From: Methylacidiphilum caldifontis
GTDB lineage: Bacteria; Verrucomicrobiota; Verrucomicrobiia; Methylacidiphilales; CAMAQI01
DNA: 35,210 nucleotides
NCBI GenBank assembly: GCA_945860255.1
Contig: CAMAQI010000003.1
Coordinates: 1 to 35,210, forward strand
Direction: 5' to 3'
Part shown: positions 5,064 through 22,874 of the stretch, piece by piece
Numbering within the stretch: position 1 is the first letter of the stretch
Layout of the letters: each line of letters opens with the position of its first letter
Translations under genes and position numbers: made by a program
Notes under the pieces: model-generated
Seen by the model: only the letters and a program-made list of their open reading frames with translations
What the model was told of the DNA's origin: nothing
Databases searched by the model: none

Positions 5064-5749
5064 TAGGCACACGAATTTCGTTAGGGAAGAAACATAAGGA
5101 TGAAGGAGAAAAGCCATTCTGGATTTCTTTTTCTGACCTGATGACAGCACTGATGGTCTTATTTTTACTTGTCATGAGTGTTGCACTGCTTTCTGTCACA
5201 AAAACCGTGACAGATGCAGAACGTGAAAAGCTCGAAATGGAGAATGACATCGAATCAGTCATGAATGAAATTGAGCAATCCACAAAAGATTTCCCTGGAA
5301 TAACGATCGACAAAAAACGTGGGGTAATAGACTTCGGCGACAAAGCAAGGTTTGATACTGGCAGTAGTTCCCTAACCGCACAGCAAGGCGAATATCTGAG
5401 AGCGTTTATTCCCGGACTGCTCCAAATAGCCAACGGAATTAAAGGGACAAAGTGGCTTAAGCGATTTGTTGTGGAGGGATTTACCGATGAGCGAGGTGAG
5501 TATTTAATGAATCTCAACCTTAGCCTTCAAAGAAGCCAGCGTGTTATTACGATTGTGCTGGCTCCACCAAGCCCCGGAGCTGTTACTTTTACAACCGAGC
5601 AAATTCAGCAAATAAAAGAGAAGTTTTTGGTGGGAGGCTTTTCTTCAAATTCAGCAAAGAAGTCATATGAAGAAAGTCGTCGCATAGAAATCAGAATTGA
5701 GTGTTACAGTTTGGAAGAAAAGAAGAAAATGGAAGCTGCAAAACAGTAG
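5060..5749 (+). CDS. zorB: Zorya ZorB (MotB/OmpA-like, peptidoglycan-binding)
   Basis: EKPFWISFSDLMTALMVLFL TM with the conserved Asp, followed by an OmpA-like domain (VEGFTD, NLNLSLQRS, SRRIEIRI). Confidence 0.95.
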   Translation: MIGTRISLGKKHKDEGEKPFWISFSDLMTALMVLFLLVMSVALLSVTKTVTDAEREKLEMENDIESVMNEIEQSTKDFPGITIDKKRGVIDFGDKARFDTGSSSLTAQQGEYLRAFIPGLLQIANGIKGTKWLKRFVVEGFTDERGEYLMNLNLSLQRSQRVITIVLAPPSPGAVTFTTEQIQQIKEKFLVGGFSSNSAKKSYEESRRIEIRIECYSLEEKKKMEAAKQ

Positions 5750-5754
5750 TAATT

Positions 5755-7770
5755 ATGACAACCGCTGCCGATGAGCTTCAAACAGCACTTCATACCATAG
5801 GCAAAAGATCAATTGGTAGTCGTGCTTTTGTTGATTTGCGGCCCATGTCCAAAACTATTGAGATACTTAGTGCGATAAACGATAGACCAGTTCAAATTAG
5901 TAAACAGCCCATCGAAGAGGCGCTTCACATGTACATGGCCTGTGGGCAAATTGAGACACCAAGACAGGCTAAATATCTCTGTTACGGAATCTGCAGCTCA
6001 ATTGTCCAACACGGAAAAAAAATCAAGCTCATTACAAATCAGGACAAGCTAACAACTTTACTTTCCTACGTTGAAAAATTCACAGACAGACCACAACGAT
6101 TCCAACGCTATTACCGAGGGCTTTTGGATTCCTATTTTCATTTTTCGCTAGAGCACGGCCATGAAAGTAAAGAGAATGGGAGAGAACAACTCAGGCAATT
6201 TTTAGAATCAAAACTATCTTTGATCAATAAGGAGGGGATTAATCCACAGTGGGTTACAGAGCTTAATCGCAATAGCAATCTATTAGGAAAGCGGCCAACT
6301 AAGAAGTATAGCGAAATTTTTGCTGTCGAAGGATCAGATCCATTCATGGACGTATGTGATAAAGTCCAAATACGCGAAACAACATGGCTTCAAAAGGATT
6401 ACATTAATGAAAAGGTTAAAGCCATAGCGGCCATTGATGATCATGGTTTTAAATCAAAGATAACGTATTTACTTGGGTTAATTGAGCAAAACTTAGCATC
6501 ACAAAACACTAATTTAGCCTGTATATTAGACAGATACGCACAATGTTCTGATCCTTCAATCCATACCGATTTACGAGATAAAGCTGTCGGGCTCTGGAAA
6601 AATCCTTGGATTGAGGCCAATAAAGCGCAATGGGGACTGGTTGAAGATACAACAAGAGAAATGGTCGTTGGATGGCTTAAAAAACATCTCATAGGAGCAT
6701 TCTTCGAGTATTTATCGGCAGACGGGTCAAACAACAGTAGACGCGTCAATATGTGGCGTGAGTATCACGCTGAAATTGAAGATATGTATTTTGCGCTGGG
6801 AACAAACGCACAAAAAGACAACTCGCGTAGCATGCAAGACATGAAGCGGAAAATGGTAGGGAGAACATTGACTCTGGAGGGCGTGTCGAATACTAATAAT
6901 GCTTTCATTATGATTTTCCAAAAGCATGTGATCGTCGAATTTGGCGAGCATGGAAACGCGTGCTATATCTATGAAAGAGGAGCATATTTACCATTTAAAT
7001 TGCAAGGCCAGGTAATAGGTGACAGTAGCCAATTAAAAAATGATAGCTCTGCAGCATACGTTAATAAATTAAGGCACCGAGATAAAATAAGCGAAACATG
7101 GGAAGAAACGTTTAAAGATTATCTTAAAAGCCTTGGCATTAGAATTAAGGCGCACACCCCAAGAGCTGCGAATCCACCGATACATCGACCTATCCCGCGC
7201 CCTCCAGTTGAAGATAATCCGGGATTGCGTTTACCTGCGAATAAAAAGGCTGAAATTAATGTTGCAGATGAACAACTTATCGCATCACTACCGTTAAGAA
7301 AAGAATTTCGCCTCAAACTAGAGGAATTAGTTAGTGGAACTGGTGGACGGATCAAGAGAAAATTGAATAGTGCGAATGGAGTTTGGTTTTATCCCAAAAG
7401 CCTATTGACTCATGAACAAAAACGACAAATTGAAGAACTTGGATTCCAATGGAGTTCTATGGTGCAAGGATTTTCAAAGGAAGATTTTAACGATGAGATT
7501 ACTATTAAAATCGAAAATAAACAGTTAGATGAAGAGGGCGGATTTGACTGCAATGTACTAAAAGATGTGCAGCTGCCACCGCATATCAAAAACCCATTAA
7601 AAGATTTGTTTAAAAGCCATGCCCTGACAATAAATGACCTACGCCACAAAGGTGGATCGCTATGGGTAAGTGGCAATGAAACGAATATCCCACAACAAGT
7701 TAAGCATGAGTTGGAGCGATTGGGATTCCGCTGGTCAGCTAAACGAGAAGAATTTTATTTGCCTGTATGA
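5755..7770 (+). CDS. zorC: Zorya ZorC (EH-signature domain protein)
   Basis: EH-signature region NNAFIMIF..HVIVEFGEHGNACYIY...LRHRD..ETWE, located between zorB and a SNF2 helicase. ATG 5755 (5 nt after the zorB stop) is preferred to the track's 5701, giving 671 aa. Confidence 0.9.
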   Translation: MTTAADELQTALHTIGKRSIGSRAFVDLRPMSKTIEILSAINDRPVQISKQPIEEALHMYMACGQIETPRQAKYLCYGICSSIVQHGKKIKLITNQDKLTTLLSYVEKFTDRPQRFQRYYRGLLDSYFHFSLEHGHESKENGREQLRQFLESKLSLINKEGINPQWVTELNRNSNLLGKRPTKKYSEIFAVEGSDPFMDVCDKVQIRETTWLQKDYINEKVKAIAAIDDHGFKSKITYLLGLIEQNLASQNTNLACILDRYAQCSDPSIHTDLRDKAVGLWKNPWIEANKAQWGLVEDTTREMVVGWLKKHLIGAFFEYLSADGSNNSRRVNMWREYHAEIEDMYFALGTNAQKDNSRSMQDMKRKMVGRTLTLEGVSNTNNAFIMIFQKHVIVEFGEHGNACYIYERGAYLPFKLQGQVIGDSSQLKNDSSAAYVNKLRHRDKISETWEETFKDYLKSLGIRIKAHTPRAANPPIHRPIPRPPVEDNPGLRLPANKKAEINVADEQLIASLPLRKEFRLKLEELVSGTGGRIKRKLNSANGVWFYPKSLLTHEQKRQIEELGFQWSSMVQGFSKEDFNDEITIKIENKQLDEEGGFDCNVLKDVQLPPHIKNPLKDLFKSHALTINDLRHKGGSLWVSGNETNIPQQVKHELERLGFRWSAKREEFYLPV

Positions 7771-10700
7771 GCATTTTTAAAACCAAACCAGAGTCTGCTG
7801 CCTATTTTCTAAATTTCGAAGAAGGAGGCGTTTCATGGAGCACATTTCAATCGGATAAGGCCGTGAAATGTGAATCCAAACCCAACCCCATGCTGGAAAT
7901 TTTAAGGGATGAAGGTTTAGTGGAAAACTCAGGCAGTGGTTACAAAGCTTCTTGGCAAAGCGTCTATACGATTTTACAGCATGATGATGTGAATCCTGGA
8001 GCGCTTGGAATTCCGAGTGTTAGAGATATTGCGCCGACTATAGAAAGCCTAGGCACATTAACAGACAAAGATTTTGGCATATCCATTTCTGATTGGCGAG
8101 AGATTAACGGCTCAACACTAGGAATACTCCAACCGACGGGGGCGGCATTCAAAAAAGGTGAGTGGTGGTTACTTCCTGAAGAAAGTTGGAAGCTAAGAAG
8201 TAAAATACTTGAATTTTGGAAAAGACCAGAAGAACAGAGGACGCACGAATTAAATCGGCAGAACTGGAGTCAAATCCGGCAGATGGCGCTTGCAGCAAAA
8301 GCTGAAATGACAGGCTTTCTTTATAAGTGCATCGTTATTACTCCAGATAAGCTAAAGATTGATCTAAGACGCGGAGATGCTTTAGGCACCAAAGTGATTG
8401 AAGTCATTCCGAGCTTTAACGAATGTCCTGAGAATTGGCTTGATGCGTTTGATAAACAAAACAGCGTACTCGACGAATATGTTTTACCAACTAAAGAGGG
8501 AGTTGTTCAAATTCTCTTAAAGCCAGAGGTAAAATCCGTTCTTAAACAGATAAAGCAGATGCCAGGGCGTAGAGCAGCCAGTCAACGCGCCGAGGCATTT
8601 GTCATAAATCCATTTGCCGCTCTTGGTGAGGATGCAATCAATACTATCGATATTGAAGAGTTCGAACAGGCACGAGCAGCAGCAGGGATGCAATCGGATC
8701 GTTTTTTTGCCTTTGTTGGACACGAAGAAAATTCAAGCACGCTAAAAATCGGCTTGAGGGTTTTGAGGGGAGGGGTGGTCGGAGAAGAAGAGCGTTACGA
8801 GTTTGCTAGTGACGAGCTTTTAAGCAGGTTTATTCAAAGAGCTGAAAAGAATCTGGCCGATGGAATGCAACTGATCGCTTGGGAAGATTTCGAGTTTGAG
8901 ATTTTGGGTGATACGCGCAATGAACTAGAAACAATTAAAGAAGCGCAGAAGTTAAGACAAAATGGAAAGAATATTACGAAGGAATCGGTTTTTAATTTAA
9001 CAAAATACGGCGCTAGAATAATACATATTGGAGAGCAGCCTATAATTTCTTCGCCGCATATACCAAAGCCAGAGAGTGTAAAAATAAGTATAGACATTTA
9101 TGAGTCAACCTCTAACGGTGCCGTTAATACAAGCACTGAAATAAACACTGACGATCTTAAGAATGCAATTGATAAGGCAATAGCGAACGGGGACGAGACG
9201 GTTACAACGTCATGGGGCGAAGTAATATCTATTAGCAAAGCCCAAACACTATTGGTTAAAACAAAGGGGACAGCGCCGGTTCCAACCCCACCGCCACCAC
9301 CAAAACCCATTATTCCTACGCTTGTTATTGGGCAAAACGTAAATGAATTAGAATATTTAGAGAAACGAAAAGAGCTTCTTACTGCAGATAAGAAGAAATT
9401 AGTGCTGCCTACCTCACTGCGGCCTGAGTGTAAGCTACTGGATCACCAGCTTGCGGGAGTAGCTCAAATGCAGCACCTCTATCAACTTGGGCCGCAACAC
9501 GCGCGAGGCGTCATATTGGCAGATGACATGGGTCTTGGAAAAACACTCCAAACGCTGACTTTTATTTCTAGCGTCTTTGAACTCAATAAAGATGCGTCGC
9601 CTGCTTTAATCGTAGCACCTGTATCACTGTTAGAAAACTGGCAGGATGAGATTGAGAAATTTTTTATTAAAGGATCTTTGCCATATTTAACAGCGTATGG
9701 ACAAAACTTATCCAAGTTAAGGGTTCACAAAAGTAGTATTGACGATCAATTGGTGCAGATGGGGCTAATAAAGTTTTTGAAAGATAACTGGATAGGAAGT
9801 GCGAAAATAGTCCTCACCACTTATGAAACGTTAAGGGACTTGGAGTTCTCATTTGCGGCTGAGAAGTGGTCAGTGATGGTTTGCGACGAGGCCCAAAAAA
9901 TTAAAAATCCCAATGCTCTTGTTACAAGGGCCGCGCTAAAACAAAATGTGACGTTCAAAATTGCCTGTACTGGCACGCCAGTTGAAAACAGCTTGGCCGA
10001 TTTATGGTGTCTGTTTGATTTCATCCAGTCTGGATATTTAGGAACGTTAAAAGAATTTGCAAATACCTACAGACGACCAATTGAGGCTGAGTTATCAAAA
10101 GACCAAGAAAAAATTAAAAGAGTAAATGAGCTCAGATCTAAAATTGAACCCCAAATTATCAGAAGAATGAAGCATGATGTTTGCAAGGATTTGCCAATAA
10201 AAATATTTGATAAAAAATGCAAAAACATACCCATGTCGAAATATCAAATAGATCTTTATGTGAAGGCGATAAAGTCATACGATAGAAGAGATGAAGCTGG
10301 TTTTGTTACCCAGTATGATAGCAAATTGAAATTGATTCAGTATCTTCGAGCCGTAAGCATTGATCCAAGGCCGATAGGCACGGAAATAAACTTAACCTTA
10401 AGTATTAAGGATTACTGCAAGCAGACGCCAAAAATGGGATGGCTTCTTGAAACATTGGATTCAGTTAAGAAAAAGAGTCAAAAGGCCATAGTTTTTTGTG
10501 AATTTCGTTCAATTCAAATAGTGTTAAGACACTATATTCACGAAAAATTTGGATTTTCGCCGGACATTATAAACGGCGATACTGAAACATCGACAAGCTC
10601 AGATGACAGTAGAAAAAAACGGATTGATGTTTTCCAACAAAGGCCAGGATTTGGCGTTATAGTTCTAAGTCCTATAGCAGTAGGGTTTGGAGTGAACATT

Positions 10701-11396
10701 CAGGAAGCAAATCACGTCATTCATTATACGAGGCATTGGAATCCAGCCAAAGAAGATCAAGCCACAGATAGAGCTTATCGAATTGGGCAAAAGCAAGACG
10801 TTTATGTTTACACTCCCGTGATGACAGCCGACTTCACGACTTTTGAGCAAAAGCTAGATGCTTTACTGCAATTTAAGCGGGAATTATCTAAGGACATGTT
10901 AAATGGTTGTGGCGATGTTGATCTTGGAGGATTTATTATAAAAGGAATCGCACCAAGAGGGATTGTAAATAATGAAAATGAATATTTTAATCCCGCATCA
11001 CTTCCACGAGTAAAACCATTATATTTCGAAGGATTGATTGCTGCATTGTGGAGAGCAAAAGGTTACGTTTCATATTTGACACCGCAGCATGGTGACTATG
11101 GCGTTGATGTCGTCGCTATTAATGGAAATAGGGGCGCTCTTATTCAATGCAAAACCTCAAAGAAGATAAATAATCGTGAAACATGGGATGCGATAAAGGA
11201 AGTATATACCGGAAAATCGCATTACGAACGAGTGCATAGTGGAGTAACCTTTGAGCTTTTCTGTGTGACAAATAACTATTTTAACGAAAATGCAATGCAC
11301 CACGCAAAACTTAATAATGTCACATTAATAGAGAGACAGATTTTGGAAAACGAATTAAAATTGCATCCAATTTTAGTCGATGACATACCATCATAA
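7767..11396 (+). CDS. zorD: Zorya ZorD (SNF2-family helicase/ATPase with C-terminal Mrr-like nuclease)
   Basis: ILADDMGLGKT, CDEAQKIKN, TGTPVEN, GFGVNIQEANHVIHY and WNPAKEDQATDRAYRIGQ. The C-terminal FEGLIAALW..GY..TP..GDYGVDVVA...LIQCK matches the Mrr_cat pattern. ATGA overlap with zorC. Confidence 0.93.
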   Translation: MSIFKTKPESAAYFLNFEEGGVSWSTFQSDKAVKCESKPNPMLEILRDEGLVENSGSGYKASWQSVYTILQHDDVNPGALGIPSVRDIAPTIESLGTLTDKDFGISISDWREINGSTLGILQPTGAAFKKGEWWLLPEESWKLRSKILEFWKRPEEQRTHELNRQNWSQIRQMALAAKAEMTGFLYKCIVITPDKLKIDLRRGDALGTKVIEVIPSFNECPENWLDAFDKQNSVLDEYVLPTKEGVVQILLKPEVKSVLKQIKQMPGRRAASQRAEAFVINPFAALGEDAINTIDIEEFEQARAAAGMQSDRFFAFVGHEENSSTLKIGLRVLRGGVVGEEERYEFASDELLSRFIQRAEKNLADGMQLIAWEDFEFEILGDTRNELETIKEAQKLRQNGKNITKESVFNLTKYGARIIHIGEQPIISSPHIPKPESVKISIDIYESTSNGAVNTSTEINTDDLKNAIDKAIANGDETVTTSWGEVISISKAQTLLVKTKGTAPVPTPPPPPKPIIPTLVIGQNVNELEYLEKRKELLTADKKKLVLPTSLRPECKLLDHQLAGVAQMQHLYQLGPQHARGVILADDMGLGKTLQTLTFISSVFELNKDASPALIVAPVSLLENWQDEIEKFFIKGSLPYLTAYGQNLSKLRVHKSSIDDQLVQMGLIKFLKDNWIGSAKIVLTTYETLRDLEFSFAAEKWSVMVCDEAQKIKNPNALVTRAALKQNVTFKIACTGTPVENSLADLWCLFDFIQSGYLGTLKEFANTYRRPIEAELSKDQEKIKRVNELRSKIEPQIIRRMKHDVCKDLPIKIFDKKCKNIPMSKYQIDLYVKAIKSYDRRDEAGFVTQYDSKLKLIQYLRAVSIDPRPIGTEINLTLSIKDYCKQTPKMGWLLETLDSVKKKSQKAIVFCEFRSIQIVLRHYIHEKFGFSPDIINGDTETSTSSDDSRKKRIDVFQQRPGFGVIVLSPIAVGFGVNIQEANHVIHYTRHWNPAKEDQATDRAYRIGQKQDVYVYTPVMTADFTTFEQKLDALLQFKRELSKDMLNGCGDVDLGGFIIKGIAPRGIVNNENEYFNPASLPRVKPLYFEGLIAALWRAKGYVSYLTPQHGDYGVDVVAINGNRGALIQCKTSKKINNRETWDAIKEVYTGKSHYERVHSGVTFELFCVTNNYFNENAMHHAKLNNVTLIERQILENELKLHPILVDDIPS

Positions 11397-11583: not shown

Positions 11584-11612
11584 TTGACAATATTATTGGC
11601 AAGTGTTATTTT
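11584..11612 (+). promoter_or_regulatory. Sigma70-type promoter of the ACIII operon with an overlapping palindrome
   Basis: TTGACA (11584-11589), a 17-bp spacer ending in TGt, then TATTTT (11607-11612). Palindrome TTGaCAATA-t-TATTGgCAA (11584-11602). Confidence 0.6.
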
Positions 11613-11751: not shown

Positions 11752-12411
11752 ATGGCTAATCTATTTCCTAAAGAATCAAATATTGTTCCAATCAAAATTA
11801 TCCTCTGTAAGGTCATCACGGTGATCGTCATTATTTTAGGGATTACTTACTATTTCACTCCAAAGTACACCCGAGTCGGTTATAAGCCTACTCAACCGGT
11901 GGCTTTTGATCACTCTCTTCACGCCGGACAACTCGGATTGGATTGTCGTTATTGTCATAGCTTTGGAACCGTAAGCTCTCATTCTAATGTTCCGACGACT
12001 CAAACCTGTATGAATTGTCACCGTCAGGTGAAATCAAACAGTCCTAAACTCGCCCCACTTCGTGAAAGCTGGGAGACCGGAAAGCCGATGAAATGGATCA
12101 AAATCCATCAAGCACCTGATTATGTCTATTTCAATCACTCCGCTCACTTAAATCGTGGAATTAGCTGCGCAAGCTGTCACGGGAAGGTCAATGAGATGGA
12201 GGTTGTTTGGCATGATAAGCCACACAGTATGGGTTGGTGTTTAGAGTGTCATCGGAATCCTGAATTTCATATTCGACCACAAGAAGAGGTCTTTAATTTA
12301 GATTGGAAAGCCGGAGACGGCAGTACCAAAGCCCAAGTTGCACAAGGCCGTGAACTTGTCAAAAAGTGGGATGTCAATCCTCCTCAAAACTGTCAAGCCT
12401 GTCACCGCTAA
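11752..12411 (+). CDS. actA: Alternative complex III pentaheme cytochrome c subunit ActA
   Basis: One N-terminal TM, five CxxCH motifs (CRYCH, CMNCH, CASCH, CLECH, CQACH), plus QPVAFDH and PDYVYFNHSAH. Confidence 0.95.
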   Translation: MANLFPKESNIVPIKIILCKVITVIVIILGITYYFTPKYTRVGYKPTQPVAFDHSLHAGQLGLDCRYCHSFGTVSSHSNVPTTQTCMNCHRQVKSNSPKLAPLRESWETGKPMKWIKIHQAPDYVYFNHSAHLNRGISCASCHGKVNEMEVVWHDKPHSMGWCLECHRNPEFHIRPQEEVFNLDWKAGDGSTKAQVAQGRELVKKWDVNPPQNCQACHR

Positions 12412-12435
12412 ATCAATTTAAAGAGGTTCCTGATC

Positions 12436-15400
12436 ATGAAACGCAAGTGGCAACATCCAGAAAACACACAGAACGGCAAGCAATACTGGCGCAGCTTAGA
12501 TGAGCTCGCCGGAACGCCTGCGTTTAGCAAATGGCTCCAACGCGAATTTCCCGCAGGGGCCGATGAACTCGAGCTCGATGCCGTCAGCCGCCGTAGTTTT
12601 CTCCGTCTCATGGGAGGATCGCTCGCCCTTGCCGGACTCGGAATGACCGGCTGCCGTCGTCCCGAAGGTTACATTGTCCCTTTCACCAACTCTCCAGAAT
12701 GGATGGTTCCTGGAAAAACAACGCTTTACTCAACCGCAATGCCTCGCCGTCGCGGTGCCGTTTCTTTACATGCCACGACTTATGAAGGTCGCCCGACAAA
12801 GCTAGATGGAAATCCGTTACTAAACAACGGTCTCTCGGATTCCCATGTTCAAGCAGCGATTCTTGATCTTTATGACCCAGACCGCACTCGTTCCTTTAAA
12901 AAAGGGACCAAGAAAGTTGATCTCGCTGCTTTTGCTGCTTTTATTGAAGAGGTTTCGAAAAACTACGCAGCAACTCAAGGAGAAGGACTCGCTTTCCTCA
13001 CGGAATCATCGACTTCGCCAACGCTCCAACGTCTCCGTGCCGAATTTAAATCCAAATTCCCTAAGGCGCTTATCTCAGCCTACGAAGCGATTTCGACCGA
13101 TTCAGAGCTGAAAGCGACGGAGATTGCCTTTGGTCAACGTCTTCAACTGCTTCCTCAGTTTGATAAAGCCGATGTCATCCTTTCTCTCGACTGCGATTTT
13201 TGTGCAACCGATGAAGGGGGAATTGGGGCGATTAAAGGATTTGCCTCCCGTCGTCGTGTCCGTAAATCGGGCGACACCATGAATCGTCTTTATGTCGCTG
13301 AAAGCCGAATCACCAGCACCGGAGGAATGGCCGACCATCGGCTCCGTCTCAAAGCATCACAACAGCCAGCTTTCCTCGCTTTAGTGGCGAAAGAGATGTC
13401 CGCTAACGGAGCTGGAGCTGATCTCACGACGCTTGCAAATAACGTTTCTGGATCAGTCACCTTCACAGAGGTTCAACTCCGTTGGGCGCGTGAAACTGCG
13501 ATTGATTTAATTAAGTACGGGAAGGGAATGGTCGTTGTCGGAAGTCAACAACCGGTTGCCGTTCATTTGCTGGCGATTGCAATCAATCAAGCTTTAGGGG
13601 CTTATCGCAACGAAGTGATTCGAGTCACGGCTCCTGTTCAAATTCCAGCCGCTCCTTTTTCTGAGCTCGTCACGGCAGTCAAAGCTGGATCGGTCAAAAC
13701 GCTTTTCATTATTGGTGGAAACCCGGTTTACAATACCCCGGCGGATATTGCCTGGGCTGATTTACAAAAATCAGTTGAGCAAGTGGTTCGTGTCGGTTCT
13801 TATGAAGATGAGACGACTTCCGTTAAATCGGATTGGACGATCCCTCTCGCTCATTTCCTTGAAACTTGGGGAGATGCTCGTGCGGTTGATGGAACCTACC
13901 TTGCCCTCCAGCCGATGATTCTCCCGCTTTTCGGTGCGGTTTCAGAGCTTCAAATTTTTGCCGCGCTTTTGGGTGAAAAAGAGTGTCTCATGCCCCTCCC
14001 GGTCGTTGCCCCTGCGAAAGTCGCAACTCCGACGGTCCCTGGTCAGGCGAGCAATCTTCCGATCCCTCCCGAGTTGACGGTGGTTCAAAAAACCTTTGTC
14101 GAAGTCACGAAAGCAAACAACTGGAATAAGCTCCTTCATGACGGTTTCTGGGCCGGTTCTGCTTTTGCAAATGTTGCGGTCGCTTATCGCTCCGCAGCCG
14201 TCGTCGAGTCGGTGAAGCAAAATTTCCCAAGCTATCAAGAAGGGCTTGAAGTCACATTCTTTGCTTGTCCTAAAATTGATGACGGTCGCTATGCGAACAA
14301 CGGATGGCTCCAAGAGTTGCCCGATGTTCAATCGAAGTTGACTTGGGATAACGCTGCTTACGTCAGCTATACCACCGCTCGCAAACTGGGATTAAGAATT
14401 GCAGAGATCAAACCGATCACAATTGCTTTAGACCCCGCCGAGGTCAAACGTCGCGAAGAGAATCCGACTTTGGAACTTGATGGCGATGATGCCGATGTCG
14501 TGATCATTGAGGTTGAGGGACGCTCGATCGAGATTCCGGTTTATGTGATGCCTGGTCAAGCCGATGATTCGATTGCGATTGCGCTCGGATACGGAAGATC
14601 CTTTAACGGTTATGTCGGAAACAAAGTCGGGTCAAATGCCTTTGCGATTCGAACCTCCACAAATTTATTTGTCGCTCAGAACGTTAAAATCAGTCGTGCG
14701 AACAAAGATTTTAGACTCGCGCAAACCCAACACCATTTCAGCATGGAAGGGCGTGCGATTGTTCGTGAGTTGACCTTGGAAGAGTTTAATAAGAACGCTG
14801 GCATCGTGAAGATCATGGGCATCGATGGTCACCAACCTGCAGATATGGCCTCTCTCTATGAGACTCAAATGGGTACGGGACATCGTCCGCAGCTCACCGA
14901 TCCTCATCAATGGGGAATGGTCATTGATCTAACAACCTGCGTCGGCTGTAACGCTTGCGTCGTTGCTTGTCAAAGTGAGAACAACATTCCGATCGTCGGA
15001 AAGAGTCAAGTCGGACGCGGTCGGTCGATGCATTGGATGCGAATCGATCGTTACTACTCTGAATCCCCTACCGATCCACAGATGGCGGTTCAACCGATGC
15101 TCTGTCAGCATTGCGAAAATGCGCCGTGCGAAACGGTTTGTCCAGTGAATGCAACCGTTCACAGTGAGGATGGATTAAATGTGATGGCTTATAACCGTTG
15201 TATCGGAACTCGATATTGCGCCAATAACTGTCCTTATAAAGTCCGTCGTTTTAATTTTTTCGATTACAATAAACGTAAAGTCAACAAGTCACATAAGTTG
15301 CTTGGATTTGAGGTCGGCAATCTTTACTTTGGACCGTTCGGCGAGCAAAATGATGACAAGGTGGCGGAGATGCAAAAGAATCCGAATGTCACGGTTCGTA

Positions 15401-15819
15401 TGCGCGGTGTCATGGAGAAGTGTACTTTTTGTATCCAACGCGTTGAAGAGGCGAAGATCAATGCTCTCCGACTTTCGAAAAATACGGAAAAGCAGAAAGT
15501 GGCAACCGACTCCTTTAAATCGGCCTGTCAACAAGCTTGTCCTGCAGAGGCGATTGTTTTCGGAGATATTGCAAATCCAGAAAGTGCCGTGACCAAGCTT
15601 CGTGCATTGGAGCAAAATTACGGCGTTCTTTCCTATCTTGGAACTCGGCCTCGTGTGACTTACTTGGCACGCGTTCGAAATCCAAATCCGTTACTCCCCG
15701 ATGACTATGAAAAAGTTGGGCTCAAGAGTGATTGGGATAAACAAAGTCACCTCGGCGGACATGGAGATGGCCATGGCGAGGAACACGGAGCTCATAAAAG
15801 TGAGTCCGGACACCACTAA
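12436..15819 (+). CDS. actB: Alternative complex III subunit ActB (molybdopterin-oxidoreductase-like domain fused to an Fe-S domain)
   Basis: YWRSLDEL leader and Tat/lipoprotein signal SRRSFLRLMG...GC. Fe-S motifs CVGCNACVVAC, CQHCENAPCETVC, CIGTRYCANNC and KCTFC..ACQQAC. Confidence 0.96.
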   Translation: MKRKWQHPENTQNGKQYWRSLDELAGTPAFSKWLQREFPAGADELELDAVSRRSFLRLMGGSLALAGLGMTGCRRPEGYIVPFTNSPEWMVPGKTTLYSTAMPRRRGAVSLHATTYEGRPTKLDGNPLLNNGLSDSHVQAAILDLYDPDRTRSFKKGTKKVDLAAFAAFIEEVSKNYAATQGEGLAFLTESSTSPTLQRLRAEFKSKFPKALISAYEAISTDSELKATEIAFGQRLQLLPQFDKADVILSLDCDFCATDEGGIGAIKGFASRRRVRKSGDTMNRLYVAESRITSTGGMADHRLRLKASQQPAFLALVAKEMSANGAGADLTTLANNVSGSVTFTEVQLRWARETAIDLIKYGKGMVVVGSQQPVAVHLLAIAINQALGAYRNEVIRVTAPVQIPAAPFSELVTAVKAGSVKTLFIIGGNPVYNTPADIAWADLQKSVEQVVRVGSYEDETTSVKSDWTIPLAHFLETWGDARAVDGTYLALQPMILPLFGAVSELQIFAALLGEKECLMPLPVVAPAKVATPTVPGQASNLPIPPELTVVQKTFVEVTKANNWNKLLHDGFWAGSAFANVAVAYRSAAVVESVKQNFPSYQEGLEVTFFACPKIDDGRYANNGWLQELPDVQSKLTWDNAAYVSYTTARKLGLRIAEIKPITIALDPAEVKRREENPTLELDGDDADVVIIEVEGRSIEIPVYVMPGQADDSIAIALGYGRSFNGYVGNKVGSNAFAIRTSTNLFVAQNVKISRANKDFRLAQTQHHFSMEGRAIVRELTLEEFNKNAGIVKIMGIDGHQPADMASLYETQMGTGHRPQLTDPHQWGMVIDLTTCVGCNACVVACQSENNIPIVGKSQVGRGRSMHWMRIDRYYSESPTDPQMAVQPMLCQHCENAPCETVCPVNATVHSEDGLNVMAYNRCIGTRYCANNCPYKVRRFNFFDYNKRKVNKSHKLLGFEVGNLYFGPFGEQNDDKVAEMQKNPNVTVRMRGVMEKCTFCIQRVEEAKINALRLSKNTEKQKVATDSFKSACQQACPAEAIVFGDIANPESAVTKLRALEQNYGVLSYLGTRPRVTYLARVRNPNPLLPDDYEKVGLKSDWDKQSHLGGHGDGHGEEHGAHKSESGHH

Positions 15820-15838
15820 AGCACAAGGGTAAACAATT

Positions 15839-17278
15839 ATGGCGCATGGCACGACATCAGTGAACGCGAATAGCCCCGACTACATCGCCGCGGCGAAGCA
15901 GGTCGAACGTCCTCCTCTCGTAGGGAATGGTCGTGGCTTTCATTGGATCACCGAAAAAATTTGTTCAATCATCGAGGGGGATACTCCTCGTTGGTGGTGG
16001 ATCGCTTTTTTCATCACGGGAGCTATTTCACTCCTCGTTCCGATTAGTTTGATTTATCTTGTCTCCACTGGAATTGGAACTTGGGGGTTAAATCATCCCG
16101 TCGGTTGGGCTTGGGATATTACGAACTTCGTTTTTTGGATCGGTATTGGACACGCTGGAACGTTGATTTCTGCGATTCTCTTTTTAACTCGTCAAAAATG
16201 GCGTACCTCCATTAATCGTGCCGCTGAAGCGATGACTCTTTTTGCGGTGGTCTGTGCTGGTATCTTTCCGGCCTTTCACGTTGGACGGGTCTGGTTTGCC
16301 TGGTTTTTAGCTCCCGTTCCTCAAGCGAATGCGATTTGGCCGAACTTCCGAAGTCCGTTGCTCTGGGACGTTTTTGCGGTCTCGACCTACTTCACGGTTT
16401 CAGTTCTTTTCTGGTACACTGGTTTGATTCCTGATTTCGCAACCTTACGGGATCGTGAAGTCAAGGTTTGGAAAAAGAAGCTTTATCATATTCTCTCCTT
16501 CGGCTGGCGCTCCTCCAATCGTCAGTGGAAGCATTATGAAATGGCTTATCTTTGTCTCGCCGGTTTAAGCACTCCGTTGGTGCTTTCGGTTCACTCGATC
16601 GTTTCCTTTGACTTTGCGACTTCTGTCATTCCTGGTTGGCATACGACGATTTTCCCTCCTTACTTTGTGGCAGGAGCGATCTTCGGAGGATTTGCGATGG
16701 TGTTGACGGTGATGCTTCCATTCCGAGCGATTTTCGGATTAGAGGATTTGATCACGGAAAAGCATATCGACAATATGTGTAAGATCATTTTGCTGACGGG
16801 ATCGATCGTTGGTTATGCCTATTTAATGGAACTTTTCATTGCGTGGTATAGTGGAAATCCGTACGAGAAATATGCATTCTGGAATCGTGCGTTAGGACCT
16901 TATTGGTGGTCTTATTGGGGGATGATGATTTGTAACGTCCTGATTCCTCAGCTTTTCTGGGTGAACAAATTCCGTAAAAATGTAGTCGCGGTTTGGATTA
17001 TCGTTTGGGGACCGAATATCGGGATGTGGTACGAGCGTTTCGTGATCATCGTGACCTCGATTCATCGCGATTTCCTTCCCTCCTCATGGGGAATGTTTAA
17101 GCCTGAATTGAATGACATCACTCTCTTTGTCGGAACTTGTGGGTTATTTACTTGGTTGTTTTTGGTCTTTATCCGATTCCTCCCAGTGATTGCGATTGCT
17201 GAAGTGAAAGGGGTGATTCCTGAAGCGGATCCCCACTTCCATGGAAAAGAGGATCCTAAGGGAGGTCATCATGTCTAA
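15839..17278 (+). CDS. actC: Alternative complex III NrfD-like quinol-binding subunit ActC
   Basis: [48 protein letters not shown] and [15 protein letters not shown]. Confidence 0.96.
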
Positions 17279-17858
17279 TGCACCTGTTTATGGCGTGGGA
17301 GCTGAATTTAAATCGGCGACGGAACTTTATCATGCGGCGGAGGTCGTACGGGATAAAGGATTCAAATGGTGGGATACCTATTCTCCTTATCCGATCCACG
17401 GAATGGAAATTGCCATGGGGACTGGGAAATCATGGGTCTCGACCTTTGTTCTTTGCGGAGGAATGATGGGGTTTACACTCGGAATTTCTTTAGAGTCATT
17501 GACATCAATTCCTCGTCCTGAGTTCCTTAAAGATATTCAAAGCGGTTGGTTGCTCGATCTTTTTTATCCATTGATCGTTCATGGAAAACCGTATTGGGCC
17601 TTACCTGCTTTTTTTCCAGTGATGTTTGAGCTGACCATTTTGCTCTCGGCTTTTGGAGCAATTCTCGGAATGTTGATTTGCAATATCTTACCTCGATTGA
17701 ACCATCCGGTTTTTAATTGGGAGCTTTTCTGCAAAAGGGCGAGCGATGACAGCTTCTTTTTGATCATTGAAGCGGCCGATCCTCTTTATGCAGAAGAAGA
17801 GACGAAGAAGCTATTGGAAGAACTGGGTGGAACCCAAATTACGGTGATTTCAAAATGA
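17271..17858 (+). CDS. actD: Alternative complex III subunit ActD (DUF3341)
   Basis: [20 protein letters not shown] and [11 protein letters not shown]. Start moved to ATG 17271 because of GGAGG at 17261-17265. Confidence 0.93.
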
Positions 17859-18472
17859 GATACTACCTTTTAGGATTATTTGTAGTGGTCACAGCGATTC
17901 TCTGTGTCGTCGGCTTTCGCGGTCAAATGACCGAGCGAACACCGATCGAGCTCTTTGATGACATGGATCGCCAAGCTAAAGTAAAATACCAAAAGCCCAG
18001 TGAGTTCTTTGCGGATGGACGAGCCTCTCGGATGCCGGTTACGGGAACGATTCCTGCAACCATTCCGATTGATGATGAATATTTCGTGACCGGAGCGATT
18101 GGAAATCAGTGGGGAGATGGAATGCCGAAAAGCGTAACGGTTTCCACCAAGTTTATGGCTGCGGGGAAAGAGCGTTATGAGATTAACTGTCGGGTCTGTC
18201 ACGGATCGACAGGAATGGGCAACGGGATTGTGACTCAATACGGATTAGCAGGAGTCGCTAACTTGCTTGATGAGCGTATCCGAACGATGTCGGATGGAGA
18301 GCTCTTTAATACGATTACCAAGGGTAAAGGGCAAATGATGGGCTACGGGGCAAATATCACCCCTCAGGATCGATGGGCGATTGTCGCTTATATGCGGGCA
18401 CTTCAACGAAGCCAAAAAGCTTCATTAAGTGACGTTCCAGAAACTGAACGTGGAAAATTGCTGAAAAAATAA
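17855..18472 (+). CDS. actE: Alternative complex III monoheme cytochrome c ActE
   Basis: DMDRQAK, FFADG, a single CRVCH, GKGQMMGY and DRWAIVAYMRALQ. Confidence 0.93.
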   Translation: MRYYLLGLFVVVTAILCVVGFRGQMTERTPIELFDDMDRQAKVKYQKPSEFFADGRASRMPVTGTIPATIPIDDEYFVTGAIGNQWGDGMPKSVTVSTKFMAAGKERYEINCRVCHGSTGMGNGIVTQYGLAGVANLLDERIRTMSDGELFNTITKGKGQMMGYGANITPQDRWAIVAYMRALQRSQKASLSDVPETERGKLLKK

Positions 18473-18485
18473 CAGGTCAAAAGTC

Positions 18486-19712
18486 ATGGAAGCAAAAGTT
18501 CAAGATCGAGTCAGTTTAAAGAAAGAGGACCTAGGGGGGACGATTACCGCCCTTTGGGTCATTGGGATTATCGGATTGATTGGTGCGGCAATTGGCTGTC
18601 ATCTGAATCCGAAGGCCTTTAATTTTTCGTGGTTATTTTCTTTTATGGTATTTTACACGATGGCAGCCGGTTGCTTTTTCTGGCTCATCGTTCAACATGC
18701 GACAAATTCCGGATGGAATACCTTGGTTCGCCGTCAATTGGAGAACGTTGTCGGGGTATTTCCTTATTTGGCCTTATTCTTTATTCCGTTATTGCCAATT
18801 GTCGGTGGAGATCGTCTTCACTCGCTCTGGCCTTGGTTAGATCCTGCGGTGACGGACCATGATCCTCTTTATCATGCAAAGGCTGGTTATTTTACGATGG
18901 GTTTTGATTGGCCCGCCTTTTTTTATGTACGCTTGGCCTTTTACTTTACGACTTTTGTATTAGTCGGGGCTTGGTTTCGTCGTCGATCGCTACAACAAGA
19001 TAGCGATGGTCATCCGATTCACTCGGTAGTGATGAGAAAGACTTCTTATGGCGTGATCGCCCTCTTTGCGATCAGCATAAGTTTCTCGGCAATCGATTGG
19101 ATGATGAGTATGGATTATCGTTGGTATTCAACGATGTGGGGAGTTTATATTTTTGCAGGCTCTGCAGGTTCCGCAATGGCGCTCTTGGCGATCATTCTTC
19201 ATGCTTTGAAAGCAAAGGGATACCTTCAACTCGTCACTGAGGAGCATTTTCATATTGTTGGTAAGTTGATGTTTGCCTTCACGATTTTCTGGTCCTACAT
19301 CGCGTTCAGTCAATTCATGTTGATCTGGTATGCAAATATTCCGGAAGAGACGATTTTTTATAAAATTCGTAATACGCCCGAATGGTTTCCATTAAGTATT
19401 GGATTGCTCTTGGGACATTTTATTATTCCGTTTCTTTGGTTACTCGGACAGGCGGCAAAGAAAACCCCATGGCGCCTCATCGCAGGGGCTTCGTGGATGA
19501 TTTTCATTCATATGTGTGATCTTTATTGGATTATCATGCCCGTTTATCAAAAGAGTCCGATTCCAGATTGGAAACATTTCCTTCTCAATGGAAGTTGCCT
19601 TTTGGGGATAGGTTGCATTATTGCGGCGGTTTTCTTGAGAAATCTGACAAAAGCAAACCTCTATCCTGTGAAAGATCCTCGTCTGGACGAGTCGATTCAC
19701 TTAAAGAATTAA
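18486..19712 (+). CDS. actF: Alternative complex III membrane subunit ActF
   Basis: Polytopic protein with AIDWMMSMD..WYSTMWG, FWSYIAFSQFMLIWYANIPEET and PVKDPRL. Confidence 0.93.
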   Translation: MEAKVQDRVSLKKEDLGGTITALWVIGIIGLIGAAIGCHLNPKAFNFSWLFSFMVFYTMAAGCFFWLIVQHATNSGWNTLVRRQLENVVGVFPYLALFFIPLLPIVGGDRLHSLWPWLDPAVTDHDPLYHAKAGYFTMGFDWPAFFYVRLAFYFTTFVLVGAWFRRRSLQQDSDGHPIHSVVMRKTSYGVIALFAISISFSAIDWMMSMDYRWYSTMWGVYIFAGSAGSAMALLAIILHALKAKGYLQLVTEEHFHIVGKLMFAFTIFWSYIAFSQFMLIWYANIPEETIFYKIRNTPEWFPLSIGLLLGHFIIPFLWLLGQAAKKTPWRLIAGASWMIFIHMCDLYWIIMPVYQKSPIPDWKHFLLNGSCLLGIGCIIAAVFLRNLTKANLYPVKDPRLDESIHLKN

Positions 19713-19721
19713 GGAAAATTT

Positions 19722-20054
19722 ATGACAGATACCCATGACTCATCAGAATCGAAAGGGGGCTTCGGCTCTTTTTTAAAGATCTCCTTAGGGATTGCTTTTT
19801 TTGCTTTCGTGACTGGATCGATTCTTTGTGCTTATCGTTTGGAGAATAAGACCTACGATCAAACGCGTGCGATTGAGCGGACAAAAAAATTAAATGAGCT
19901 GCGTACTAAAGAGGCAGCGATTTTGGATTCCTACGCTGTTTTGGATGAGGCAAAAGGGATTTATCAAATTCCGATTGCAAGATCGATGGAGCTTGAGATT
20001 GAGGCGCTGAAGGACAAGCCTCTTCGTACAGTGGGAGTGATCCCTGTTAAATAA
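19722..20054 (+). CDS. Small single-TM ACIII-associated protein (ActG-like)
   Basis: 110 aa with one TM, and LDSYAVLDEAKGIYQIPIARSME resembling the Y..vD...G...IPI..AM motif of ActG-type proteins. Positioned after actF. Confidence 0.7.
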   Translation: MTDTHDSSESKGGFGSFLKISLGIAFFAFVTGSILCAYRLENKTYDQTRAIERTKKLNELRTKEAAILDSYAVLDEAKGIYQIPIARSMELEIEALKDKPLRTVGVIPVK

Positions 20055-20063
20055 AGGTTTTAT

Positions 20064-21539
20064 ATGAATGGCTCAAAAGATGTACAGTTAGAGGGGTATG
20101 GCGATGAGAATTTAGACCGTTCTTTGCAGGGACCGTTAAGTCTTCTTTTTGTTTGCTCTGCCTTATGGTTGGTCGTCTCCAGTCTTTTAGGAGCAGTCGC
20201 TTTTTGGCAGCTTAAATTTCCTGGATTAATTGATTTTAAAGCTGGGATTCAGACTCCTTATGTCGGATGGTTTTTTGATTTCATTCATCAGGCCTTGAAT
20301 TATGGACGTGCCGTTGCGGCGACGAAGAGCGTGATGATTTACGGGTGGTTGTTGCAAGGATTCCTTGGGGTGGCGATTTGGCTCACGGGACGTTTGACAA
20401 AGAAGATGATTTGTAAAACAGGAAACTATTTTTTACTCGGGGCCATTGCGCTTTGGAATATCGGAGTTCTTGTTGGGTTAATGGGAGTTTTCTCAGGGGA
20501 AGCGAGTGGGTTTTCCGGATTTGATTTTCCGAAATATGCCGCAGCAATTCTCTTTACTGCTTACGCTTTTATCGGTTTAGGGATGGGAATGCGATTTGCG
20601 AAGAAGAGTTGTTCGGTACCGACGCCATCAGAATGGTATTTGATCGGGGCAATCTTCTGGTTTCCTTGGTTTTTCGGGGTCGCCTACTATTTTGTTTTTT
20701 GTAAAGTCGTTTTTGGGGTGATGCCTGCACTCGTCCATGCGTGGTATATCGGGGGACTTGAAGTGTTGGTGTTAGGATCTTTAGCGATATCGATTCTTTA
20801 CTATTTAGTCCCTTCGATTTTGGGGTTGGCGTTAAATCGAGTTCATTCTGCGAAAAGTGCGTTTTGGTTTTTTGCCTTTTTAGGAGCTTGGTCAGGGGTT
20901 CGACATTTGGTTGGCGGACCGCTTCCGGCATGGATGATTAGCTCAAGTGTTGTTGCGGGGGTATTGCTTTTGATTCCAGGAACGATCATCGCCAATAATC
21001 AAATGGTTCCGCTTTGGTCAAACTGGTGCAAGGTTAAGTCGACGCCCGTTCTCTGGTATTTGGCGACCGGCGGGGTTTCCCTTTTAGTTTGGATTTCGCT
21101 TGAGGCCATGATGTCGTTACGAGGAGTAAGTGCGGCGCTTCGATTCAGCTATTTTGAAATGGGAGTTTCAGCGGTTTTTGAATATGCCTTTTTATCGATG
21201 GTTTTATTCGGATCGATCTATGCGATTCTTCCGACGCTGACTGGAAAAGAACTACCATGCTGTGTGAAGTGCTGTTCCAAGTGTCAATTTTGGTGGGGCT
21301 TTTGTGGAGTGATTACTTTTTTTACGGGAACATTTTTTGCTGGGACCTTTATGGGATTGGGAATTAACTTCGCTCCGATGGCTTTTGTCGCAACAACGAA
21401 TTTAGCAAGTCCCTTCTTTTGGCTCTCAGTGGCAGGAGGGATCATGGTTCTTCTTGCGAATTTAATCTTCGTCAAAAACGTAGTAGCAACGGTGTTGTCT
21501 GCTTGTTGTGAATCGAATAAGGAAGGATGTTGCTCATGA
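20064..21539 (+). CDS. cbb3-type oxidase subunit I (CcoN)-fold membrane protein lacking most heme/Cu histidine ligands; Cys-rich
   Basis: About 12 TMs with CcoN landmarks (LNYGR, WNIG, SEWY, WY, YYLVP, GPLPAW, FGSIY..LP), but only four His in 491 aa. Followed by a CcoO-like gene. Confidence 0.8.
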   Translation: MNGSKDVQLEGYGDENLDRSLQGPLSLLFVCSALWLVVSSLLGAVAFWQLKFPGLIDFKAGIQTPYVGWFFDFIHQALNYGRAVAATKSVMIYGWLLQGFLGVAIWLTGRLTKKMICKTGNYFLLGAIALWNIGVLVGLMGVFSGEASGFSGFDFPKYAAAILFTAYAFIGLGMGMRFAKKSCSVPTPSEWYLIGAIFWFPWFFGVAYYFVFCKVVFGVMPALVHAWYIGGLEVLVLGSLAISILYYLVPSILGLALNRVHSAKSAFWFFAFLGAWSGVRHLVGGPLPAWMISSSVVAGVLLLIPGTIIANNQMVPLWSNWCKVKSTPVLWYLATGGVSLLVWISLEAMMSLRGVSAALRFSYFEMGVSAVFEYAFLSMVLFGSIYAILPTLTGKELPCCVKCCSKCQFWWGFCGVITFFTGTFFAGTFMGLGINFAPMAFVATTNLASPFFWLSVAGGIMVLLANLIFVKNVVATVLSACCESNKEGCCS

Positions 21540-22189
21540 ATGGTTACGGACGTCTTTTTGTCGGAATCTTGTTTGCCTTTGTTTTCTCTTGGGCGGCGTT
21601 GATTTTAGTTCCTTTAAATCAGGTGGGAAACTTAATGCCTTTGGAGGATCAAACCAGTGGGGATCTGAACCCACCCGCGTTGAGTGGTTTAGCGAAACGA
21701 GGCTCTCAAGTCTATGCGGCTAATGGATGTGCCAGTTGCCATACGCAGCAGGTTCGCTCGGAGAGCGGCGGTTCGGATATTGCGCGTCAATGGGGAGCTC
21801 GTCAAACGGTGGCTCGCGATTATTTATATCATTCGAATCCGAATTTGGGTTCAATGCGCTTAGGGCCGGATCTTGCAAATTTGGGAGTCGAGCGCCCTGA
21901 TTTGAATGTCAATGCAGGGCCGAAGAAAAAATATGATGCAGCGGGGCTTCACCAACTTTTTTATGCCCCTCGATCGATCAAGGGATCAAGCCATCCGAGT
22001 TATTCCTTTTTATATGAGAAACGGGAAATTAAGGGAGCCAATGCAGAGGTCTCTTTGATTCTTCCTGTCGGATTTGAAACAGAAGAGGGGAAAGAGGTTG
22101 TTCCTTCCGAAGATGCGAAAGCGTTGGTCGCTTATCTTCTCTCTTTAAATCGTATGTATGCGCTTCCTGAAGCGCCGGTGAAACCTTAA
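21536..22189 (+). CDS. cbb3-type oxidase subunit II (CcoO)-like monoheme cytochrome c
   Basis: N-terminal TM, G..VY...GCASCHTQQVR, GSMRLGPDLANLG and ALVAYLLSL. Start 21536 preferred (ATGA overlap; AAGGAAGGA at 21519-21527). Confidence 0.85.
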   Translation: MNGYGRLFVGILFAFVFSWAALILVPLNQVGNLMPLEDQTSGDLNPPALSGLAKRGSQVYAANGCASCHTQQVRSESGGSDIARQWGARQTVARDYLYHSNPNLGSMRLGPDLANLGVERPDLNVNAGPKKKYDAAGLHQLFYAPRSIKGSSHPSYSFLYEKREIKGANAEVSLILPVGFETEEGKEVVPSEDAKALVAYLLSLNRMYALPEAPVKP

Positions 22190-22203
22190 AGAGGAACGGG
22201 TGT

Positions 22204-22803
22204 ATGTCTGATCATTCTTCAAATCAATCGAACGAAAATTCTCATCAAGAATCGATGCTTCCTCAGTGGATGTATTGGGTTTTTGCAGCCCTTCTTATTT
22301 GGGGAGGGGCTTATTTAATGCGTTATTCCGGAGGGTTCAGCGGTGAGGTTTATGATGAATCGACGGTGACTTATGGACCGGTAAAAGGGGGAGCGGCGGC
22401 GGTCGAAGATCCTAAGGTTTTAGGGGCACGGGTTTATAAAGCGAATTGCGCACAGTGTCATCAATTGACAGGACTCGGCGTTGAGGGGCAGTATCCTCCG
22501 TTGGCTGGTTCGGAATTTGTATTAGGCAGTGAGGCTCATGTGATCCGTATTCTGCTTCATGGTTTAGTTGGCCCTATTACGGTGAACGGAAAACCTTACA
22601 ATGGGAATATGGCCCCTTGGAAAGATGTTTTGGATGACAAAAAAATCTCTCAAGTGCTCACTTATATTCGATCGGATTGGGGAAATAATGCCTCGGCGAT
22701 TACTCCAGAGATGGTTGCGGCAGTTCGCAAAGAAGAGGCAGCGCGTTCGGCCTCTTGGACTGAAAAAGAGCTTGAAGCGGCTCCTAAGGTTCTTCCGAAA
22801 TAG
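22204..22803 (+). CDS. Membrane-anchored monoheme class I cytochrome c
   Basis: LPQW..TM anchor, G..VY..NCAQCHQ..G.G....YPPLAGS, YNGNMAPW (axial Met) and LTYIRSDWGN. Confidence 0.9.
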   Translation: MSDHSSNQSNENSHQESMLPQWMYWVFAALLIWGGAYLMRYSGGFSGEVYDESTVTYGPVKGGAAAVEDPKVLGARVYKANCAQCHQLTGLGVEGQYPPLAGSEFVLGSEAHVIRILLHGLVGPITVNGKPYNGNMAPWKDVLDDKKISQVLTYIRSDWGNNASAITPEMVAAVRKEEAARSASWTEKELEAAPKVLPK

Positions 22804-22830
22804 ACTCTTTTCCGAATTGCAATTTTTCCT

Positions 22831-22874
22831 AAACTGTTGGAAATCCGTATGATCGGTGGTTCCAACTGTTTTTT
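22831..22874 (+). terminator. Probable intrinsic terminator of the ACIII operon
   Basis: AAAC-t-GTTGGAA ... TTCCAAC-t-GTTT stem with an inner CCG/CGG, and a T6 tract (22869-22874), starting about 28 nt after the last stop codon. Confidence 0.55.

Follow-up and report, generated by a model that had tools for sequence, protein, structure and literature searches.

CcoN-like proteins without cofactor ligands in alternative complex III operons of Verrucomicrobiota

What is gained by keeping the catalytic subunit of an oxidase when nearly all the residues that would hold its haems and copper are gone? This question is raised by a 35,210-nucleotide (nt) stretch of Methylacidiphilum caldifontis (GenBank assembly GCA_945860255.1, contig CAMAQI010000003.1; 'the window', our contig C3), part of a verrucomicrobial genome of 2.39 Mb assembled in 244 contigs and 87% complete. 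The window carries an operon for alternative complex III (ACIII), a quinol:acceptor oxidoreductase, that ends in three genes resembling those of the CcoN, CcoO and CcoP subunits of cbb3-type oxidases (N, O and P below). We find that the N-like protein, P0001, has the fold of CcoN and lacks most of its cofactor ligands, that the same state recurs on ACIII operons across a class of Verrucomicrobiota, and that the two cytochromes encoded with it keep their haem sites.

The N-like protein and its counterparts in related genomes

P0001 matches the COX1/CcoN families over its full length, albeit weakly (TIGR00780, 61.7 bits, under the cut-off of 583.15). Its AlphaFold2 model is confident (predicted local distance difference test, pLDDT, 88.9; predicted template modelling score, pTM, 0.90) and was aligned by Foldseek with the P. 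stutzeri CcoN 3MK7_A at 18% identity (template modelling, TM, score 0.84/0.89; root-mean-square deviation 1.8 Å; E = 1.5e-17). Catalytic subunits of the C family bind haem b by two His, haem b3 by one and CuB by three. These columns were located by pairwise HMMER alignment to CcoN sequences in PDB and by MAFFT alignments with 50, then 97 homologues, all of which were concordant. P0001 has T87 in place of the haem b His of transmembrane helix 2, G230 in place of the first CuB His, R280-H281 at the HH pair, and V368/A370 at the HxH of haem b3 and haem b. Five of the six His ligands are thus absent and only H281 is left, in a protein with four His altogether. The column of the cross-linked Tyr is G274. 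The true CcoN fragment from the same genome served as an internal control and carries the canonical motifs.

With five of six His and the Tyr missing, canonical binding of haem b, haem b3 or CuB by P0001 is impossible. Judged from its residues, it is a CcoN-shaped protein that should be incapable of binding these cofactors in any known mode and of reducing O2 or NO in the known way. An identity as NorB, from nitric oxide reductases of the cNOR or qNOR type, was considered and rejected: the same six His columns (there for haem b, haem b3 and FeB) are empty, and the Foldseek match to 3O0R_B is weaker than that to CcoN.

The features of the operon, all on the + strand, are as follows.

11584..11612, +: promoter-like site TTGACA-17-TATTTT with TG, 10 of 12 positions matching, 140 nt 5' of actA
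11752..12411, +: actA, membrane-anchored pentahaem cytochrome c; five CxxCH in 219 residues (aa); Cytochrome_C7 and c3 families, QrcA-like
12436..15819, +: actB, fused molybdopterin-like and Fe-S subunit of 1127 aa; Fer4 dicluster domains at 826-948; QrcC/QrcB-like
15839..17278, +: actC, NrfD-type quinol-binding membrane subunit; PF03916, 73.7 bits
17241..17858, +: actD; PF11821 ActD, 186 bits
17855..18472, +: actE, monohaem cytochrome c; one CxxCH; PF13442
18486..19712, +: actF, second NrfD-like membrane subunit; 234 bits to 6F0K_F (Rhodothermus ACIII, chain F)
19722..20054, +: 110-aa single-helix protein, encoded after actF and before the N-like gene; at most provisionally 'ActG-like'
20064..21539, +: CcoN-like P0001, 491 aa; PF00115, 82 bits; 12-helix haem-copper oxidase fold without cofactor ligands
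21527..22189, +: CcoO-like monohaem cytochrome c with an N-terminal helix; PF02433 FixO, NF011055; CASCH at residue 68
22204..22803, +: CcoP-like membrane-anchored monohaem cytochrome c; FixP_N anchor; PF00034/PF13442; one CxxCH
22836..22874, +: terminator-like hairpin (about 22836-22866) followed by TTTTTT to 22874; fold z-score -2.0

A reading made from the sequence alone had seen no complete haem-copper site encoded in the window, which holds, P0001 being the sole PF00115 match on contig C3. It had also taken the three genes for a pseudo-module that replaces a working oxidase. The search for a genuine ccoN or coxA that it had suggested speaks otherwise: the genome has an A-type CoxA/CoxB on contig C54 (TIGR02891, 655 bits) and a fused CcoNO with intact His motifs, one part of it at an end of contig C189 and the other at an end of C79. 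A cell with this operon would therefore still have a terminal oxidase. A second CcoN-like gene lacking the ligands (L005, C189:1588-3648, 473 aa; PF00115 39.9 bits; ligand columns A,H,S,R,D..L,T) is a divergent neighbour of the true ccoNO; its CcoO-like partner retains CxxCH, and neither a P gene nor ACIII was found alongside. No second ACIII was found in the assembly of this genome.

The same reading had called for a gene-neighbourhood survey of ACIII clusters for CcoN without His. We searched P0001 against 401 Verrucomicrobiota genomes, 121 of which gave a match at E <= 1e-10; the 91 matches at E <= 7.7e-39 all belong to one class. These 91 (about 20 kb each), with four weaker matches from the same order and two from other families, make up a set of 97 loci, which we then queried with the ten proteins of the window. 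In the seven columns of interest (six His and Tyr), 51 loci are canonical (HHYHHHH) and 46 are 'His-less', with more than 25 residue patterns. The 47 His-less proteins, the window's included, retain no ligand His (15 proteins), one (26), two (4) or three (2), and the Tyr, present in 51/51 canonical proteins, occurs in none of them. The same mixture of canonical and His-less forms, annotated as 'cbb3-type cytochrome c oxidase subunit I', was found in metagenomes by a wider protein search. His-less N on ACIII is widespread and recurrent in the class, and is not peculiar to the window.

The link to ACIII is close: actF lies directly upstream on the same strand in 93 of the 97 loci, and all six act genes are found on that strand in 84. 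Of the 13 loci without the full set, seven run off a contig end or past the limits of the sequence retrieved (L062, L067, L072, L084, L093, L123 and L127). The other six are a stand-alone N-O-P (L117), the two loci from other families (L131, L132), and L092, L094 and L104. In these last three (genomes G354, G369 and G342) the 12 kb upstream of N contain actE and actF but none of actA-D, which may mean that the ACIII cluster is split or interrupted. Their N proteins keep two to three of the six His, and an A-type CoxA follows. Genome G366 has both a His-less ACIII-linked N-O-P (L042) and the separate canonical N-O-P of L117, which has no actF upstream; the N of this second copy is placed close to the outgroup in the N tree.

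Each of the 46 genomes that carry a His-less N also has another COX1 match (best E <= 3.6e-125), and in the five genomes where the ACIII-linked N is the sole COX1 match it is canonical. A same-strand gene for an A-type CoxA follows the module after 1.4-2.3 kb in 12 of 46 His-less loci versus 2 of 51 canonical ones, an arrangement typical of the window's own branch in the ACIII tree.

History of the ligand loss

Were the ligands lost once or many times? The phylogenies bearing on this question come from quick or FastTree searches, cover a sample of genomes that are related to one another, and fix neither the root nor the exact number of losses. In a FastTree phylogeny of ActB and ActC (84 rows) the canonical and His-less states change 11 times, 10 of the changes being forced by starred branches, and 12 changes were obtained with ActD, ActE and ActF. 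IQ-TREE on 42 rows of ACIII data again gave 11 changes, and a single His-less clade was rejected by the approximately unbiased (AU) test (difference in log-likelihood 2751, p = 3.3e-6).

The tree of N itself is the chief argument for another history, in which His-less N-O-P arose once, long ago, and spread among ACIII operons by recombination or transfer; this would change the history of the module and leave its function as it is. FastTree on N alone gathers 45 of the 47 His-less sequences into a single clade (98% support, two changes), with long branches flagged, and the tree of O and P needs six changes, fewer than the 11-12 of the ACIII trees. Under a site-heterogeneous model, however, three His-less proteins fall inside a canonical clade and the basal His-less groups are separate; the branch of the window protein reaches a length of 3.05 in this tree. 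Constraining N to the mixed-state clade of the ACIII tree, under a mixture model, raised the log-likelihood by 15.3 (p-AU 0.80), a slight preference. The inner order of the FastTree His-less clade moreover mirrors the ACIII tree, and intermediates with two to three His exist. Given the mixture-model N tree, the AU test on ACIII and the constrained N test, the single clade was set aside as a long-branch artefact, and a single ancient origin appears improbable.

From these trees we conclude that the active site was probably lost many times within vertically inherited operons, and that the clade in the N-only FastTree phylogeny would reflect fast, convergent evolution after loss.

The operon and its two cytochromes

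The six act genes encode what should be a complete, textbook ACIII: a pentahaem ActA, a large ActB, two NrfD-like subunits (ActC and ActF), ActD and a monohaem ActE. ActB bears a variant Tat signal (TIGR04519, residues 15-56, with the motif RRSFLR), and ActF also matches 8K9E_F, 6LOD_F and 6BTM_F. The 110-aa protein encoded between actF and N had no match in Pfam, NCBIfam or PDB, and in the Atlas it fell only into hypothetical clusters from Verrucomicrobiota and Planctomycetota. Weak homologues (phmmer, 22-38 bits) occur in 36 of the 97 loci, and the spacing from actF to N is at least 250 nt in 92 of 93 loci.

As first described, the ten genes are co-oriented and tightly packed: ten open reading frames, actABCDEF, the small membrane gene and the CcoN-, CcoO- and CcoP-like genes, together span 11752-22803, and neighbouring frames are -38 to +24 nt apart. 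They had also been said to run from a clear promoter to a terminator-like hairpin. Both sites are present, and both are statistically weak. Scans of the region for promoters and terminators were not richer than shuffled sequence; promoter-like matches numbered 12, with 13.8 expected from shuffles, and since such sites are as frequent by chance, the promoter-like site is weak evidence and 'clear' overstates it. The boundaries of the operon are supported instead by its flanks, a defence cluster of lower G+C upstream and opposite-strand genes downstream. The upstream cluster (3141-11396), which we take to be a Zorya-type anti-phage system, consists of four co-oriented genes with a G+C of 0.37-0.43, below that of the ACIII operon. 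They encode a 640-aa protein, a MotB-plug/OmpA-like protein, an EH_Signature protein (ZorC-like) and a 1209-aa SNF2 helicase with an Mrr nuclease domain (ZorD-like). Just 5' of this cluster, 2298-2696 encodes a 132-aa PIN-domain protein, possibly the toxin of a toxin-antitoxin pair.

The two cytochromes differ from N in that they have kept their sites. O has exactly one CxxCH in every surveyed locus, canonical or His-less, and so has P wherever it was found; both haem c motifs are kept in 46/46 His-less loci and in the window. The proposal of a non-catalytic, oxidase-derived three-protein module consequently stands for N, a pseudo-enzyme, and fails for O and P, which are not pseudo-proteins. 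The P-like protein has the FixP_N anchor and one CxxCH, unlike a dihaem CcoP. A single motif is also found in all 47 canonical, His-complete ACIII-linked loci in which P was found, so that the ancestral ACIII-linked cbb3 of the class already differed from the dihaem textbook CcoP. In a PDB search the closest matches of the P haem domain were T. thermophilus c552 and the c-domains of Cu nitrite reductases; CcoP matched less well. Cytochrome c552 is an electron donor to Thermus oxidases.

Modelled together, N and O scored 0.86 versus 0.00 for the best control, with at least 94% contact agreement between runs and a partner pLDDT of at least 79, and O is predicted to sit on N. The mark used is reached by 116 of 157 solved complexes and by 2 of 215 mismatched pairs; because solved cbb3 complexes exist, passing it indicates likeness to cbb3 and not binding.

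None of the 47 His-less genes is truncated or interrupted. The ratio of nonsynonymous to synonymous substitution rates (dN/dS, Nei-Gojobori) is 0.055-0.36 in 14/14 close pairs of His-less N, compared with 0.013-0.147 in 11 pairs of canonical N, where dS is saturated in some; for O and P of His-less operons it is 0.07-0.39. Among 153 columns conserved in canonical N, 39 are still conserved in His-less N, mostly Gly, Pro, Trp and Tyr, and 14 of these lie at the modelled O interface. The 54 columns lost include all six His, a second HH pair, H185 and E151. The column comparison found no new polar residue conserved across His-less N. By these measures the N-O-P module is a conserved and selected part of the ACIII operons.

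A possible role in electron transfer from ACIII

How might a cofactor-less N serve ACIII? The reading we favour, at a probability of roughly 0.6, is that N is a non-catalytic membrane scaffold holding two c-type cytochromes that relay electrons from ACIII. N-O-P would descend from a cbb3-type oxidase that was built into ACIII operons throughout the verrucomicrobial class. N has lost the ligands of haem b, haem b3 and CuB and kept, under purifying selection, the 12-helix fold and its predicted docking surface for the CcoO-like subunit. In this form it would hold the membrane-anchored O-like and P-like proteins, their haem c sites intact, beside ACIII. Electrons from quinol would exit ACIII by way of ActA/ActE and travel over the haems of O and P to the real acceptors of the cell: in this genome the A-type oxidase of contig C54 and the fused CcoNO, and in relatives an A-type oxidase whose gene lies shortly after N-O-P. 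The other oxidases of the carriers, the downstream CoxA and the c552-like P all fit a cofactor-less N that anchors cytochromes beside ACIII. We infer both the assembly of N, O and P with ACIII and the service of the O and P haems as a relay. An adaptor, scaffold or electron exit, as the sequence-only reading had proposed among other roles, would still be the best account; the sensor that it had also named finds no support.

Known respiratory complexes offer partial parallels. The CcoNOP cbb3 oxidases (3MK7/5DJQ, 8SMR, 6XKW, 9G6B) share with the window the N-O-P order, the 12-helix fold, a FixP_N-type anchor on the third subunit, and a monohaem CcoO with an N-terminal helix, this subunit being modelled on the same face of N. 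The window differs in the absence of five of six His and the Tyr, in its monohaem third subunit, and in having these genes embedded in an ACIII operon. Flavobacterium johnsoniae has an ACIII-aa3 supercomplex built on the same principle (6BTM; Sun et al. 2018, cited by PMC8498564). There, ACIII is wired to its partner by bound c-haems, with no soluble carrier, and the match of ActF to 6BTM_F indicates the same type of complex. The F. johnsoniae partner is, however, an active A-type oxidase, whereas the adjacent partner in the window has no active site, so that the window's system needs a further acceptor. Catalytically dead subunits are also kept as structural parts in the bc1 complex, where the core proteins derive from peptidases. 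There too an enzyme fold stays under selection inside a respiratory complex after the loss of catalysis; the family is a different one, and here the loss is parallel and repeated within one bacterial class.

Several observations weigh against the relay or against repeated loss. Electrons relayed by the O and P haems must be able to leave them, and none of the analyses run showed how; in the window, no oxidase gene follows N-O-P. The O interface of His-less N is only slightly better conserved than the rest of the protein (entropy 1.76 versus 2.00 elsewhere). The surveyed genomes are related to one another, and the His-less and canonical groups compared are defined by the very trait that is counted. 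The N-only FastTree clade leaves room for a single old origin with later exchange between operons. Finally, the conserved Cys clusters of the window's lineage, described below, hint at an added function outside the scaffold.

A more modest role, doubtful to us though close to the one proposed, would have N kept purely as a structural or assembly subunit for the stability of ACIII, with O and P dispensable or independent of it. The strict synteny with actF, the retention of structural residues and the repeated loss of catalysis, never of the gene, in the sampled loci would all be expected. Such a role leaves unexplained why the haem motifs and low dN/dS of O and P persist in every His-less locus, and why the modelled N-O interface is kept, the latter perhaps reflecting cbb3 likeness only. 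It overlaps with the scaffold and does not exclude it.

Somewhat less probable still is that N still works in redox chemistry or carries a metal or haem, held by unconventional ligands, for instance a metal or Fe-S centre on cytoplasmic Cys clusters, which would make it a new ACIII-attached reductase or redox sensor. P0001 has 15 Cys, with the motifs ELPCC-x-CC (residues 396-406) and, at the C-terminus, ACCxSxKEGCCS (480-491). Both motifs are kept in its three closest relatives (P0007 and P0008 among them) at 64-81% identity, and a few other His-less proteins are Cys-rich as well (P0050 with 13, P0051 and L082 with 11 each, L116 with 9). The purifying selection on N would also suit such a function. 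On the other hand, most His-less N have 1-5 Cys, so that the motifs concern few lineages; the residues in the ligand columns vary by clade; and His-less proteins share no newly conserved polar residue. By homology to the topology of CcoN, both motifs would be cytoplasmic, far from the periplasmic haems of O and P.

Least likely by a wide margin is a decaying relic, a recently inactivated cbb3 oxidase en route to loss and of no present function: somewhat relaxed selection relative to canonical N, the other oxidases of every carrier and the very long N branches are in its favour, but the frames are intact, dN/dS is far below 1 in all 14 pairs, the P0001 model is confident, and His-less forms are common to whole genera and families and hence old; a pseudogene reading was rejected on the frames and the dN/dS.

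Four genomes from the window's order, with which its protein clusters in the ACIII tree, carry three to four pmoA each; none was found in the window's genome, at 87% completeness. In these four genomes the ACIII operon is followed by a His-less N (SESSHFV, with 5-7 His in all), O, P and an A-type CoxA. No ccoN-family match above 29 bits was found in them, and the only C-family-like gene is the His-less N; their other COX1 matches score about 430, 250-270 and 196 bits.

The occurrence of 'cbb3' genes after ACIII in verrucomicrobial methanotrophs and Opitutaceae is known (PMC8498564, citing Refojo et al. 2010; PMC6688271, PMC11102522), and the cbb3-type oxidase beside ACIII is counted among the terminal oxidases of these methanotrophs (PMC8498564, PMC6688271, PMC10205796, PMC11102522). 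The operon architecture is the same as in the window, and the gene that these papers count as a terminal oxidase is His-less in the four pmoA-bearing genomes, which we infer to be those of the organisms concerned. In the article passages searched, we found no account of a His-less ACIII-linked CcoN; as far as that text goes, the His-less form is new and the proximity of ACIII to cbb3 genes is not. According to its methods section, a classifier of haem-copper oxidases discards sequences without the six His (PMC3084760), while annotation pipelines call them cbb3 subunit I, and the His-less forms were probably overlooked for this reason.

Taken at its fullest, our proposal is that the catalytic subunit of an ACIII-attached cbb3 was stripped of its haems and copper at least 10 times, with the gene always kept, and that its fold became a scaffold for a two-haem cytochrome c wire to other terminal enzymes. 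On this account the 'cbb3-type high-affinity oxidase' of the methanotrophs would not exist as an oxidase, and the Cys clusters of the window's lineage may bind metal. For this combined statement we would give even odds.

If the pmoA-bearing genomes are indeed those of the published methanotrophs, the cbb3 'oxidase' listed for them has no active site. Genome-based models of respiration in Verrucomicrobiota, acidophilic methanotrophs included, count the N gene as a high-affinity, low-oxygen oxidase. If N cannot bind the cofactors, these models would overstate the microaerobic capacity of the organisms and miss an electron route from ACIII to the real oxidases. An enzyme turned repeatedly and in parallel into a scaffold that is retained would also provide a clean natural experiment on how pseudo-enzymes originate inside membrane complexes.

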